From NCBI GenBank assembly GCA_963665765.1, contig OY762464.1, forward strand, positions 1,513,741 through 1,577,740: a stretch of DNA of 64,000 nucleotides, in the 5' to 3' direction. This document shows, in pieces, positions 24,053 to 28,662 of the stretch. The notes beneath the pieces were generated by a model that was not told the origin of the DNA, searched no databases, and saw only the letters and a program-made list of their open reading frames with translations. A program made the translations under genes and the position numbers. The stretch comes from Acidimicrobiia bacterium (GTDB lineage: Bacteria; Actinomycetota; Acidimicrobiia; Spongiisociales; ZC4RG35). Within the stretch, counting starts at the first letter, position 1, and every line of letters begins with the position of its first letter.

Positions 24053-24832
24053 ATGACAGATGACCGACTTTCTCTGGGAGCGGGACTGGCCGGCCGGGGG
24101 GTGATTGTTACGGGCGCGGCCAGCGGTATTGGAAGAGCCACGGCTCGTCTGGCGGCGGACTGCGGGGCGCGTGTGTGCGGAGTGGACTTGAACGGTGCCG
24201 CGTTGCGCCAGGAAATGGAGGAGTGGGACCACCCCGATCGCCACCTGGCCATCGAGATCGACTTGACCGGCCCCGACGCGCCTTGTGGGGTGGTTGACGC
24301 CGCGTTGGAAGAGTTGGGTGATCTGTGGGGATTGGTGCACTGTGCGGGAGTTCTGATCCGCCGATCGAGCACGGCGGAGATCACTCGGGAAGATTGGGAC
24401 ATCCAGCACGACATCAACCTGAAGGCGTCCTTTTTCTTGAATCAAGCTGTGGGAGAGGCGCTTCGAACCGGGGGCCAAGGCGGACGTATGGTCACTCTCA
24501 GTTCCCAGGGATGGTGGACGGGCGGAAGCCACGGATCGGTGGTCTACTCGGCTTCCAAGGGGGGAATCGTCTCCATGTGCCGTGGTCTTTCCACCGCCTA
24601 TGCTCCCTATGGGATCACGGTGAACTCCATAGCGCCCGGGGTGGTGGACACACCCATGCTGGGGGCCGGTTTGACGTCGGACGACCTGGAGGCTATTGCC
24701 GCCTCCTGTCCGATGGGTCGGCTGGCCCGCCCCGAGGAAATCGCCCGGGTGGCGGTTTTCCTGCTGTCCGACCATGCCGGTTACATTTCGGCGGCCACGA
24801 TAAATGTCAGTGGGGGGCTGCTCTTTTACTGA
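24053..24832 (+). CDS. SDR family short-chain dehydrogenase/reductase
   Basis: TGAASGIG Rossmann motif and catalytic YxxxK (YSASK). Confidence 0.85.
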   Translation: MTDDRLSLGAGLAGRGVIVTGAASGIGRATARLAADCGARVCGVDLNGAALRQEMEEWDHPDRHLAIEIDLTGPDAPCGVVDAALEELGDLWGLVHCAGVLIRRSSTAEITREDWDIQHDINLKASFFLNQAVGEALRTGGQGGRMVTLSSQGWWTGGSHGSVVYSASKGGIVSMCRGLSTAYAPYGITVNSIAPGVVDTPMLGAGLTSDDLEAIAASCPMGRLARPEEIARVAVFLLSDHAGYISAATINVSGGLLFY

Positions 24833-24909
24833 ACCTAATGCAAGTGGTGCTGTCAAAACAACCAGCGGGGAAGGTGGGGGCGGGGGTTGCTGGTCTATAG
24901 TCGGGTCAA

Positions 24910-26397
24910 GTGCAAACCAGCCGACCAAGGAGGGTTCTCATCACAGCTAACACCAGCTTGCGGGGAGGGGTAGGCCGAACCGACATAACTCCACCCGTTC
25001 CAGCCGACCTGGTTGGATACGTGCGCCGGTGGCGTCCCGCCACCGAGGTGCGGGCGCCGCTCACCGCCACCGCTCTGGTCCTCGATTCCGGCGCCGAAAG
25101 GGTGGCGATCTTGGGGATCGACCTGGCGATTCTCAGCCCCGACTACGCCACCATGATCCGAGAACAAATAGCCGAAGCCATCTCCACCAGACCCGAATCG
25201 GTGCTGCTCAATGTGAGCCACACCCACGGCGGTCCGCATACGCCCGCCCGGGTCAAGCTGGGGGGTCGGCTGGACGAGATCAACCCTTCCGAGCAGGCCT
25301 ACTTCGAGATTCTTCCGCACCAACTGGTTTCGGCGGCTCGGCTGGCTGCCGAGAACCTGACGCCGGTGCGGGTGGGCTCGGCCAGCACGGAGGTGAAGGG
25401 TCTGTCTGTGAACCGCCGAGAGCGGGTGCAGGGAGTGGAGGGGACGGTCGGCTCGCTCAACACCATCCTGGGATGGAATCCGGACGGCCCGGTTGATCGG
25501 GATGCGGGAGTGATTCGGGTCGATCGTGAGGATGGTTCGCCACTGGCGGTGGTGGTCAGCTTCGGATGCCACCCGGTGGTGGTGGGCCCCGAGGACCCCG
25601 CCATCAACCCCGATTTTCCCTGGCCGTTGCGGGAGGCGGTGGAGAAGGCGACCGGAGCGACGTGTGTCTTTCTGCAAGGCGCGGGGGGAAACATCCTTCC
25701 CCTGCAGGCGTTCCTGCCCGAGTCCGGCGCCGAAATAGCGTTCGGAGAAAAGCTGGCGTCCGAGGCTCTCCACGCCATGGGCAACATAGAGACCTTCGAG
25801 ACCCGGATCGACCGGCTCGCCTACGGATCGGTGACGCCCATTTCCCTCTATCGAGTGGTGCGTTCCGAGACGCAGCCGCCTCAGGAACTGGCAGTGACGA
25901 CCACCGTGGTGGACCTACCCCTCAAGCGGGTACCCACCATCGACGAGGTAAAGGCCGAACGGGATCACTATCGGGGCAAGTTGGCCGAGGCCAAGGAGTC
26001 CGGCGTCGGCCGGGAGGAAATCAACCCGATCCAATACCACATCAGTTGGGCGGAGTCGGCGATCGCCCAACTGGAGGAGGCTCCCTACGACCGGGTTCCG
26101 GCCTTTGTGCAAGCGATCCGAATAGGAGACACCGCCATCGTGACCATTCCCGGTGAGGCCTTTGCCGAGATTGCCCTGGCTATCAGGGGGCGATCTCCTG
26201 CCGGTCGGGCCAACACCATCTTCTCCGGCTATTCCAACGGGGTCATTTCCTATCTGCCCAGTGCTGCTGAGTACCCTCATGGTGGTTACGAGGTGGATTA
26301 CGCCCACCACAGTTACGGTTTGATCGAGCAGGTGGCCCCCGAGTCGGAGGCGATCCTGGTTGAGGCAGGAGTGGCGATGCTCAAGGAGTTGTGGTAA
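24910..26397 (+). CDS. Neutral/alkaline ceramidase-like hydrolase domain protein (hypothetical)
   Basis: N-terminal region (TDITPP...GY...LTATALVL) resembles the neutral ceramidase N-domain; assignment is from memory of the family. Confidence 0.4.
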   Translation: MQTSRPRRVLITANTSLRGGVGRTDITPPVPADLVGYVRRWRPATEVRAPLTATALVLDSGAERVAILGIDLAILSPDYATMIREQIAEAISTRPESVLLNVSHTHGGPHTPARVKLGGRLDEINPSEQAYFEILPHQLVSAARLAAENLTPVRVGSASTEVKGLSVNRRERVQGVEGTVGSLNTILGWNPDGPVDRDAGVIRVDREDGSPLAVVVSFGCHPVVVGPEDPAINPDFPWPLREAVEKATGATCVFLQGAGGNILPLQAFLPESGAEIAFGEKLASEALHAMGNIETFETRIDRLAYGSVTPISLYRVVRSETQPPQELAVTTTVVDLPLKRVPTIDEVKAERDHYRGKLAEAKESGVGREEINPIQYHISWAESAIAQLEEAPYDRVPAFVQAIRIGDTAIVTIPGEAFAEIALAIRGRSPAGRANTIFSGYSNGVISYLPSAAEYPHGGYEVDYAHHSYGLIEQVAPESEAILVEAGVAMLKELW

Positions 26398-27419: not shown

Positions 27420-28408
27420 GCGATGGAACGAAGATGGAACGCCGCAAGGCGGTGGCCGAGAATCGGGTGGCGCGGTACGAGCGGATGGTGGAGATCCGCG
27501 CCTTTGAGGATCGGGTGCAGGGCCTGTTCGCCGAGGGCGTGGTGCACGGCACCACCCATACCGCCCAAGGGCAGGAAGCGGTGGCGGTGGGGATTGCGGC
27601 GGCGGCCCGCATCACCGATACGGTCACCTGCACCTATCGGGGACATGGAATGGGTTTGGCCTTGGGAATGACCCCCGAGTCGATCCTGGGAGAGATCATG
27701 GGCCGGGAGATGGGGTGCATTGGCGGCATCGCCGGTTCCATGCATCTGGTCGACCGGGAACTGGGCCTTTTCCCCACTTTCGCCATCATCGGCGCCGGTA
27801 TTCCGGTGGCTGCCGGAGCGGCCCTGACCGCCCAGGTGAAGGGAACCGACGATGCGGCGATCGGGGTTTTCGGCGACGGCGCATCCAACATCGGCGCCTT
27901 CCATGAGGGACTCAACCTGGCGGCCATCTGGAAGCTGCCGGTGGTGTTCATCTGCGAGAACAACCAGTACGGCGAATACAGCCGAATCAACCTGACCACG
28001 CCCATCGAAGACCTGGCTGACCGGGCGGTGTCCTATGGGATTCCGGGAATCATGGTTGATGGGCAGGATCCTGATGCGACAGCCCAAGCGGTGGGTGAGG
28101 CCCTGGACAGGGCGCGGTCCGGGCAGGGCCCGACGCTGTTGGAGATGAAGACCTATCGCTACGCCGGGCACTCCCGCGCCGACAAGGCCGAGTATCGACC
28201 AGAAGGCGAGTTCGACAGTTGGTATCAGCGGGACCCGATCAACACCTTTCGGGCAAGACTGGAGTCAGAGGGTCTCTTGGCCGTGGGGCAGGCGGCTCGA
28301 ATCGATCAGCAGGTTGCCGCTCGGATAGAAGCAGCGGTGGAGGCGGCGAAGCAGAGTCCCCCGGCCGGCGTGGACGCCATGTTTCGCAACATCTACGCGC
28401 CCGTATAG
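27416..28408 (+). CDS. 2-oxoacid dehydrogenase E1 component alpha subunit (TPP-dependent)
   Basis: GQEAVAVG..., TPP-binding GDG..N motif; ATGA overlap with the beta subunit gene. Confidence 0.85.
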   Translation: [330 protein letters not shown]

Positions 28409-28425
28409 AGAGGAAGGGCTGACCA

Positions 28426-28662
28426 ATGCGTTTCGAGGTGAAGATGCCCAGGCTGGGCGAGACGGTGGACGAAGTTGTGCTTTTGGAATGGATGGTAAAG
28501 GTCGGAGAAGAGGTGGAAAAGGACTCCGAGTTGGCCTTGGTGGAGACCGACAAGGTGGAGACCGAGGTGCCTTCCCCGGTGGCGGGAACGGTGGTCGAGA
28601 TCCTGATAGAAGAAGACGCCGAGGTGATCACCGGCGAGGTGATCTGCGTCATCGAAACATAG
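28426..28662 (+). CDS. Stand-alone lipoyl-domain protein (78 aa)
   Basis: Biotin/lipoyl attachment fold with the E-T-D-K-V lipoyl-lysine motif; no E2 catalytic domain follows. Confidence 0.7.
   Translation: MRFEVKMPRLGETVDEVVLLEWMVKVGEEVEKDSELALVETDKVETEVPSPVAGTVVEILIEEDAEVITGEVICVIET

Follow-up and report, generated by a model that had tools for sequence, protein, structure and literature searches.

The window analysed here, a 64-kb stretch of contig OY762464.1 (GenBank assembly GCA_963665765.1, positions 1,513,741 to 1,577,740) from an Acidimicrobiia bacterium, contains a cassette of five genes that encode, in order, an SDR, a ceramidase-like protein (CER-like), the beta and alpha subunits of a 2-oxoacid dehydrogenase-type E1 (E1beta and E1alpha), and a free-standing lipoyl carrier (LIP); the last three genes are referred to below as the trio. 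All five were recovered on the plus strand by the open reading frame (ORF) listing and by Pfam and NCBIfam scans (Table 1). A preliminary description, made from the DNA letters alone, had called them five co-directional, overlapping genes; the shared direction stood, and overlaps were present at two of the junctions, specifically CER-like stop to E1beta start (TAATG) and E1beta stop to E1alpha start (ATGA), whereas the SDR and CER-like genes are separated by at least 77 nt and LIP starts 17 nt past the end of E1alpha, with a purine-rich ribosome-binding region in the gap. The CER-like, E1beta, and E1alpha genes are translationally coupled. Alternative starts exist for CER-like, whose homologues begin near TTG 24958, and for E1beta (GTG 26391), and the E1alpha reading frame opens from 27386, upstream of its ATG. 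The SDR reached no NCBIfam equivalog cut-off, its top matches being sugar and 3-oxoacyl dehydrogenases, and its gene adjoins the CER-like gene in many lineages. A promoter and terminator scan of the locus returned no promoters, and terminators at chance level. Longest-ORF gene calling was noisy in high-GC loci; the conclusions below rest on tblastn, Pfam, and database gene calls.

Both E1 subunits scored below every NCBIfam equivalog cut-off, with E1beta at 315.9 bits to NF006667 (cut-off 321) and E1alpha at 322 bits to TIGR03182 (cut-off 394). Among PDB entries, E1beta was closest to the beta subunit of the Thermus thermophilus 2-oxoacid dehydrogenase (1um9_B, 4.8e-77) and retains the HSQ motif; E1alpha aligned with human PDH E1alpha (1ni4_A, 1.5e-57) at the YRYAGHS histidine and at the GDG...NN thiamine-diphosphate motif ([34 protein letters not shown]). 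Judged by these motifs, the E1 pair is intact, and both the thiamine-diphosphate motif and the reductive-acylation histidines are retained.

LIP carries the motif VETDKVE, and K43, in the ETDK turn, is its predicted lipoylation site. The top NCBIfam matches were E2 lipoyl domains (83 bits), biotin-carrier models reached at most 35 bits, and the (A/V)MKM biotinyl-lysine motif of biotin carboxyl carriers is absent from LIP, which has ETDKVE instead. The GcvH profile PF01597 was matched at 28.5 bits (cut-off 22.2), but only over residues 17-66 and a third of the profile, compared with 78 bits for PF00364; TIGR00527 gave 21.8 against a cut-off of 115.85, and the 78 aa of LIP compare with ∼120-130 aa for the GcvH type. 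LIP is best described, from its sequence, as an E2-type lipoyl domain. Homologues 72-83 aa long were found in >140 protein clusters, and in an alignment of 12 diverse sequences (Actinobacteria, Chloroflexota, and one Paenibacillus E2), E40, T41, and K43 were invariant and D42 nearly so. The LIP gene closes with a clean TAG, the position of the stop is shared by strains whose downstream DNA differs, and a 97.6%-identical strain (L001; L numbers designate compared loci and contigs) is collinear with the window to the last base of LIP, 28662, and again from 33323. Because synteny with L001 breaks exactly at 28662, the end of the LIP gene is conserved with variable DNA behind it. The possibility raised in the preliminary description that the 78-aa ORF is the truncated 5′ part of an E2 was thus ruled out by the conserved length of LIP and by the synteny break at its stop codon, and LIP is a stand-alone protein.

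Directly 3′ of LIP lies a strain-variable, mobile-looking segment of 4.66 kb (28663-33322) with a GC content of about 0.58, compared with 0.64, which is replaced in L001 by 0.8 kb of other DNA that contains a DoxX gene.

The lack of an E2 core and of E3 (dihydrolipoamide dehydrogenase) in the cluster, noted earlier for the cassette, extended to the whole 64-kb window, in which tblastn with two E2 catalytic domains and one E3 found neither. Likewise, no E2 catalytic or subunit-binding domain was detected by tblastn within 10 kb in actinobacterial CER-anchored loci with a stand-alone LIP. E3 was not found in the flanks of close relatives, nor within 10 kb in any classical locus of the E1alpha-anchored scan described below; E3 is commonly encoded elsewhere in the genome, and its local absence is uninformative because the classical loci lack it nearby as well. 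The possibility that E2 and E3 lie just beyond the cluster in orthologous loci was not borne out in close loci, whereas a distant cluster in Paenibacillus contaminans has both a full E2 and an E3. Some relatives have separate E2-core genes, and an E2 core or E3 may lie elsewhere in the source genome. The conserved 78-aa LIP and the absence of adjacent E2 and E3 in close loci uphold the earlier proposal of an E1 module that loads a free lipoyl carrier, rather than a classical complex around an E2 core.

The block SDR-CER-E1beta-E1alpha-LIP recurs in several sponge-associated Acidimicrobiia genomes with wholly different flanks. The co-occurrence of the CER-like gene with E1 and lipoyl genes was surveyed in 80 CER-anchored loci, with one genome per species and neighbours counted within 10 kb. 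A lipoyl-domain gene was present in 37 of the 80 loci, and E1 and LIP occurred without any E2 core in 25, compared with a rough chance expectation of a few per cent for a lipoyl gene in a 20-kb window; the cassette arrangement is therefore far beyond chance. Carriers include Candidatus Poriferisocius, Ilumatobacteraceae, freshwater Nanopelagicaceae and Planktophila, Dactylosporangium sp. CA-233914, and P. contaminans.

Metagenome contigs were also scanned with E1alpha as the anchor, and identity was measured against the E1alpha of the window. Among 32 loci with an E1alpha of ≥53% identity, the order was beta-alpha wherever E1beta was found (29/29), and in 24 of the 32 a LIP match, usually a 77-86 aa ORF, began 12-62 nt past E1alpha; in four others LIP was elsewhere in the locus, and the four without a LIP match ended 167-545 nt past E1alpha. 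At ≤52% identity, by comparison, the order was alpha-beta in all loci, LIP matches fell within ORFs of 225-648 aa, and an E2 catalytic-domain match accompanied most of them. A neighbour-joining tree built from 120 E1alpha sequences placed the 64 of beta-alpha order in one clade, which contained no alpha-beta members. The beta-before-alpha order, which had been remarked on as atypical, is thus diagnostic, and the beta-alpha-LIP architecture defines a monophyletic E1 clade that is common in Actinobacteria. A plasmid collection queried with E1alpha yielded only relatives of ≤47% identity, and no annotated cultured member of the clade was present there; the two of these relatives that were examined, from Brevibacillus and Natronosalvus, were classical complexes with E2 and lpdA.

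Across relatives, the E2 core occurs in three states. The fused state, with an E3, is represented by the P. contaminans cluster (L042; 40-46% identity), in which E2 and E3 lie beside a CER-like gene in the order IclR, MR_MLE, E1alpha, E1beta, full E2 (lipoyl, subunit-binding, and catalytic domains), RidA, E3, CER, SDR. The split state occurs in Chloroflexota, for example in a Limnocylindrales locus (L051), where next to the LIP gene come, in order, a distinct E2 core-only gene of 235 aa (PF00198, 2.6e-72), CER, an HpcH/malate-synthase-like lyase, and a MaoC hydratase; additionally, three metagenomic members of the E1 clade (L098, L099, and L130) have a convergent E2 core-only gene right after LIP with the DHR motif intact. 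In the third state, seen in most Actinobacteria including the window, LIP stands alone, in some cases together with a family III CoA-transferase. This series, from fused E2 through split LIP and core to LIP only, documents how such a complex can be dismantled in evolution.

The genomic context of the trio is catabolic and of a sugar-acid type, consisting of import and breakdown islands with LacI or IclR regulators. In the E1alpha scan, genes of the MR_MLE (enolase) superfamily occurred at 21 of the 24 clade loci that exceed 7 kb, compared with two of 27 classical loci. In database gene calls, a GFO/IDH/MocA oxidoreductase (GFO) and a xylose-isomerase-like TIM barrel (TIM) lie directly upstream of the trio in several lineages, on the same strand and next to E1beta in L017-L019, L092, L095, and L097. 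Other neighbours are Amidohydro_2 or PTE-type hydrolases, SDRs, rhamnose mutarotase, an isomerase-like protein, and lactonases, and the surroundings include LacI regulators and sugar ABC importers. Nearly the whole inferred pathway is found in one 20-kb cluster of the cultivable actinomycete Dactylosporangium sp. CA-233914 (L091, CP192030.1, 7849029-7870462), which contains LIP, E1alpha, E1beta, a family III CoA-transferase, MR_MLE, LacI, a CitE-type lyase, a MaoC hydratase, SDR, and CER, and further PTE, TIM, GFO, DAP_DH_C, a second MR_MLE, a second SDR, a dimethylformamidase-like protein, and SBP_bac_5, but in which no RidA gene was detected.

The window holds several of the same families (GFO, TIM, MR_MLE, and an SBP_bac_5 sub-cluster), but they are dispersed. 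The detached sub-cluster (54805-62685) is placed in one pathway with the cassette because in sponge Acidimicrobiia loci L005-L011 SBP_bac_5, dimethylformamidase (DMF) genes, SDR, DAP_DH_C, and RidA directly flank SDR-CER-E1beta-E1alpha-LIP. The divergent operon upstream of the cassette, with genes for an amidohydrolase, a binding protein, and an ABC transporter, also flanks it in L001 and L012; because other lineages do not keep it, it is taken to serve uptake and an initial hydrolysis that are particular to this lineage. None of the accessory enzymes had an equivalog-level NCBIfam match, and therefore no substrate name can be transferred from them. The gene for the 722-aa periplasmic binding protein of the divergent operon contains two tandem units of ∼940 nt that are ∼88% identical, and looks like the result of a recent internal duplication or of a fusion between two binding proteins of the sugar type, which is also seen in L001.

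The CER-like protein was modelled with AlphaFold (pLDDT 78.8, pTM 0.85), and its only PDB matches by Foldseek were the neutral ceramidases 2zws (Pseudomonas aeruginosa) and 4wgk (human), with an E value of 6e-23 and a TMq of 0.62. The HTH and CHP motifs and conserved Glu and Tyr residues align with the zinc-site region of the Pseudomonas ceramidase, and the invariant residues are S103-H104-x-H106, H221, E416, Y441/Y448/Y460, and 10 arginines. The catalytic-domain fold is thus common to both, and motifs of the CER-like protein align with the HTHSGP-type motif and a further histidine of the ceramidase, but identity is 16-18%, the CER-like protein has ∼480 aa compared with about 630-690 and lacks the C-terminal domain, and many of its arginines are invariant. 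Furthermore, the PF04734 match covers only positions 4-212 of the 509 in the profile, and the neutral-ceramidase model NF041649 scored 28.3 bits against a cut-off of 1200. The description of this protein as neutral-ceramidase-like was accordingly retained for the fold and the zinc motifs, and dropped for membership in the ceramidase family.

The CER-like family comprises proteins of 420-520 aa that occur in sugar-acid clusters, with 13,529 representatives at E ≤ 0.001, now annotated as hypothetical or neutral ceramidase, for which the cassette gives a first functional context. No lipoyl gene was near CER in 43 of the 80 loci, some loci had three to five CER paralogues, and CER was present in only three of the 24 E1-clade loci, the trio occurring without it in L092-L097; on these grounds, the protein is read as a substrate-level hydrolase. 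We infer a zinc hydrolase acting on a polar, probably anionic amide or lactone, rather than a proven ceramidase; the sugar-acid context and the invariant arginines argue against a hydrophobic lipid such as ceramide as a likely substrate. In Chloroflexota, LIP, with or without an E2 core, immediately precedes CER, with no E1 within 10 kb. One Chloroflexota metagenome-assembled genome (L029, JBJTJV010000034.1, 8411-10618) has the E2 core and CER in a single 735-aa ORF with an 81-aa LIP gene before it, which could be a genuine fusion or a stop codon lost in assembly. In its sister loci the E2 core and CER are separate, the L051 E2-core ORF ending 11 nt before the CER start and the tblastn matches of the two lying 18-90 nt apart in others, and no further fusion of this kind was found among the best 150 of the 13,529 family representatives. 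A second candidate, P0109 (608 aa), was rejected as a CER fusion, its N-terminal extension having the look of a spurious translation.

We consider it somewhat more probable than an even chance that the E1 oxidatively decarboxylates a pathway-specific 2-oxoacid onto the free lipoyl carrier, which is then unloaded and reoxidised in trans, and the module very probably works like the first half of a classical complex. From what is known of the family, E1 would decarboxylate the 2-oxoacid oxidatively and pass the acyl group to the lipoyl-lysine of LIP by reductive acylation. The likeliest substrate would be either a 2-keto-3-deoxy acid that the MR_MLE dehydratase produces or a keto acid that arises through a DAP_DH_C/RidA deamination pair. 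Acyl-dihydrolipoyl-LIP would be unloaded in trans by a separately encoded E2 core, where present; in its absence, release would be independent of coenzyme A (CoA), by hydrolysis or lactonisation, and co-occurrence suggests that the family III CoA-transferase would then re-activate the acid, with the MaoC-type hydratase and the CitE-type lyase processing the CoA ester. The proposed CoA-ester route may be likened to the leucine cluster of Mycobacterium tuberculosis, in which E1/E2, MaoC hydratase, and CitE lyase genes are neighbours. A shared E3 would reoxidise LIP, and the SDR and the CER-like zinc hydrolase would act upstream, through oxidation and through amide or lactone hydrolysis of a polar anionic compound that is not ceramide. 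The link to MR_MLE thereby yields a testable hypothesis, the lipoyl-dependent oxidative decarboxylation of 2-keto-3-deoxy sugar acids. To our knowledge, such a step is part of no described sugar-acid pathway.

Several points weigh against this reading. The choice of substrate was drawn from gene co-occurrence, the MR_MLE gene of the window lies 18 kb from the cassette and outside the operon, and GFO and TIM upstream of E1beta would also fit an alpha-hydroxyketone or diketone substrate. A separate or housekeeping E2 core, an E3, and a lipoate ligase are assumed to be present in the source genome. Among the 80 CER-anchored loci, E2-core genes (nine loci) and the family III CoA-transferase (11 loci) shared no locus, and a wider locus table added L090 and L091 to the CoA_transf_3 set, but this complementarity follows phyla (Chloroflexota and Firmicutes versus Actinobacteria) and is suggestive only. 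Finally, the adjacency of LIP and CER in Chloroflexota fits a direct relation between the two better than a purely substrate-level role for CER.

Four alternatives and one variant of the proposed decarboxylation were weighed, and are taken here in descending order of probability. The first, an unlikely one, is a C-C cleavage of the acetoin-dehydrogenase or IolD type, in which an alpha-hydroxyketone or 1,2-diketone sugar derivative made by GFO and TIM, or a ketose made by an isomerase, would be split and the thiamine-bound fragment oxidised onto LIP as an acyl (e.g., glycolyl) thioester. The GFO-TIM pair directly upstream of the trio, the presence of both families in the window and in L091, an Arabinose_Iso_C isomerase-like gene and rhaM nearby, and the naming of close E1alpha homologues as acetoin:DCPIP oxidoreductase by some sources all point in this direction, and there are parallels in IolG and IolE, which feed the thiamine-dependent IolD, and in QncN/QncL, which load a ketose-derived glycolyl unit onto a lipoyl group. 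However, those names are automatic annotations, and the clade is accompanied more constantly by MR_MLE, an enzyme family that yields 2-oxoacids, than by GFO or TIM.

A variant of the decarboxylation reading, which we regard as rather unlikely, makes LIP a true pathway carrier, from which an acyl thioester derived from a 2-keto-3-deoxy acid would be processed or released without any E2 core. This step could fall to the CER-like hydrolase, or to a CitE-type lyase that attacks the thioester while it is bound to the protein, in the manner of citrate lyase and its acyl carrier; alternatively, a 4-hydroxyacyl thioester could lactonise spontaneously and the lactonases of the cluster then take over. 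If true, lipoyl-dependent oxidative decarboxylation would gain a new output mode that is CoA-independent, and 2-keto-3-deoxy sugar acids would have a fifth fate in addition to aldol cleavage with or without prior phosphorylation, dehydration, and 4-oxidation with subsequent hydrolysis.

It is more doubtful that the CER-like protein acts directly on LIP, either as a thioesterase or acyl-transferase that unloads acyl-dihydrolipoyl-LIP, or as a lipoamidase-like or maturation enzyme working on N6-lipoyl-lysine. Such a role would agree with the overlap of the CER-like stop with the E1beta start, the frequency of lipoyl genes around CER, the Chloroflexota loci in which LIP is immediately upstream of CER without E1 nearby, and the single ORF of L029; the ten invariant arginines could bind the very acidic LIP, and ceramidases cleave N-acyl amides, which are chemically akin to lipoyl-lysine. 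It is at odds with the many CER loci that lack a lipoyl gene and the paralogues, which are as expected for substrate-level hydrolases, with the rarity of CER around the E1 clade, with CER genes found beside a full E2 (Paenibacillus) or a separate E2 core (Chloroflexota), and with the fusion being one metagenome-assembled case. A biosynthetic or lipid route, in which the E1-loaded carrier would donate an acyl unit to a ceramide-like or amide product, had been put forward in the preliminary description and is very improbable: natural-product pathways do include E1/lipoyl systems from which carrier proteins receive their units, and the reaction of neutral ceramidases is reversible, but no synthase, nonribosomal peptide synthetase or polyketide synthase, acyl-carrier, or lipid gene occurred in any context examined, and every context was catabolic (ABC importers, LacI or IclR, MR_MLE, lactonases, GFO/TIM, rhamnose mutarotase). 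Least credible of all is a decayed classical complex, non-functional or reliant on chance, to which the missing E2 core and E3 and the mobile-looking, lower-GC insertion behind LIP might point, but which conflicts with the length and ETDK motif of LIP kept across phyla, the constant stop position, the intact E1 motifs, and a monophyletic architecture old enough for E1alpha identity to fall to 53%.

In the textbook 2-oxoacid dehydrogenase, the lipoyl arms belong to an E2 core around which the complex is assembled. The cassette resembles the alpha2beta2 E1 of the pyruvate, branched-chain, and acetoin complexes in E1 homology, thiamine-diphosphate motif, histidines, and lipoyl-lysine acceptor, but differs from them in its separate 78-aa lipoyl protein, its beta-alpha order, and the lack of an E2 core, a subunit-binding domain, or E3 in the locus; it is set apart from a classical complex because the lipoyl domain is not fused to an E2 core. 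Compared with the acetoin dehydrogenase system (AcoA/AcoB/AcoC/AcoL), the window has no AcoC-type E2 and no E3. The P. contaminans, Brevibacillus laterosporus, and Natronosalvus rutilus systems belong to the same broad E1 family (41-46% identity) and have sugar transport and regulator neighbours, and the P. contaminans cluster shares MR_MLE, RidA, CER-like, and SDR genes with the cassette contexts, but all three have a fused E2, a dedicated E3, and alpha-beta order, and fall outside the beta-alpha-LIP clade.

E1 operons of the archaeon Haloferax volcanii reportedly include a gene for an unattached lipoyl domain but lack both E2 and E3. These orphan operons are the closest precedent, likened to the cassette by architecture and not by sequence, and are not an explanation of it. 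In one account, oadhAB2 and oadhAB3 of this species are presented as acetoin-dehydrogenase-like E1 paralogues, with pyruvate and 2-oxoglutarate excluded as substrates (PMC8305020). No association of the H. volcanii operons with CER-like or MR_MLE genes has been reported. Among Actinobacteria, OdhA (also known as KGD) of the PDH-ODH supercomplex is similar to the cassette in having lipoyl and acyltransferase domains on different polypeptides that work in trans with a shared E3, the lipoyl domains being supplied by E2p (PMC10415282). The split is the opposite one, since OdhA carries an E2 core and borrows lipoyl domains, whereas the cassette carries a lipoyl domain without a core, and the two actinobacterial arrangements form a pair. 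A literature search found no description of the bacterial clade or of its association with either enolase-superfamily dehydratases or ceramidase-fold proteins. The clade thus represents a whole and apparently abundant group of E1 enzymes with a stand-alone lipoyl protein, most members having no E2 core nearby, and is carried by sponge-associated Acidimicrobiia, freshwater Nanopelagicaceae, and soil actinomycetes.

Table 1. Cassette genes and other features of the 64-kb window.
Feature	Positions	Strand	Product or ORF	Evidence and remarks
SDR	24053-24832	+	259 aa	First cassette gene; PF13561 8.7e-53
CER-like protein	24910-26397	+	495 aa from GTG 24910	PF04734, N-terminal part only, 1.8e-11
E1beta	26397-27419	+	340 aa from ATG 26397	PF02779 2.4e-39; PF02780 3.1e-31
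E1alpha	27416-28408	+	330 aa from ATG 27416	PF00676 1.4e-80
LIP, free-standing lipoyl carrier	28426-28662	+	78 aa	PF00364 4.3e-22; predicted lipoyl-lysine K43 in ETDK
Divergent operon	18690-23968	-		Pfam
Operon permease	18690-19688	-		Pfam
Operon ABC ATPase	19637-20410	-		Pfam
Operon binding protein	20495-22663	-	722 aa	Pfam
Operon amidohydrolase	22670-23968	-		Pfam
SbcD-like phosphoesterase	28770-29879			In segment 28663-33322
SbcC/LmuB-like ATPase, apparently split, first ORF	29883-30359		158 aa
SbcC/LmuB-like ATPase, apparently split, second ORF	30274-33012		912 aa
GFO/IDH/MocA oxidoreductase	34247-35338	+		PF01408 1.3e-29; recurrent trio neighbour
TIM barrel, AP_endonuc_2	44443-45309	-		Pfam
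Isomerase-like protein, Arabinose_Iso_C domain	45340-46782			Pfam
MR_MLE enolase-superfamily dehydratase	46900-48048			Pfam
SBP_bac_5	54805-56679	-		Detached sub-cluster; Pfam, tblastn
Dimethylformamidase-like, DMFA2_C	57276-59507			Detached sub-cluster
SDR	59551-60324			Detached sub-cluster
PTE-like hydrolase	about 60351-61256			Detached sub-cluster
DAP_DH_C-type dehydrogenase	about 61253-62311			Detached sub-cluster
RidA	about 62311-62685			Detached sub-cluster

Several other features of the window were recorded. The ORF of the SbcC/LmuB-like ATPase continues beyond residue 158 in contig L002, and the copy in the window may thus be frameshifted. An HNH endonuclease gene (33518-34111) lies just inside the resumed synteny, and a serine beta-lactamase-family gene (17080-18252) is found upstream of the ABC operon, both without any obvious tie to the cassette. 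A type II restriction-modification pair (48346-50789; methyltransferase PDLC03227, 9e-127, and endonuclease PDLC03420, 1e-123) is situated between the sugar-acid genes in the lowest-GC stretch of the window (0.545). The minus-strand gene at 42878-44329 encodes a protein with Schlafen/AlbA_2, HATPase_c_4, and winged-helix domains that partially matched pAgo-associated and SIR2-associated models in PADLOC, and may be a defence or regulatory gene.

In a marine metagenome contig (L099, CEOP01138203.1, 1884-15421; GC 0.42), the trio lies beside a corrinoid methyltransferase set consisting of a URO-D-like methyltransferase, a B12-binding protein, a RACo activator, a pterin-binding protein, and CobW, and the same contig encodes MR_MLE, SDR, the E2 core-only gene, an isocitrate/isopropylmalate-type dehydrogenase, and a Rieske oxygenase; this gene content hints at a methylated substrate in that lineage.

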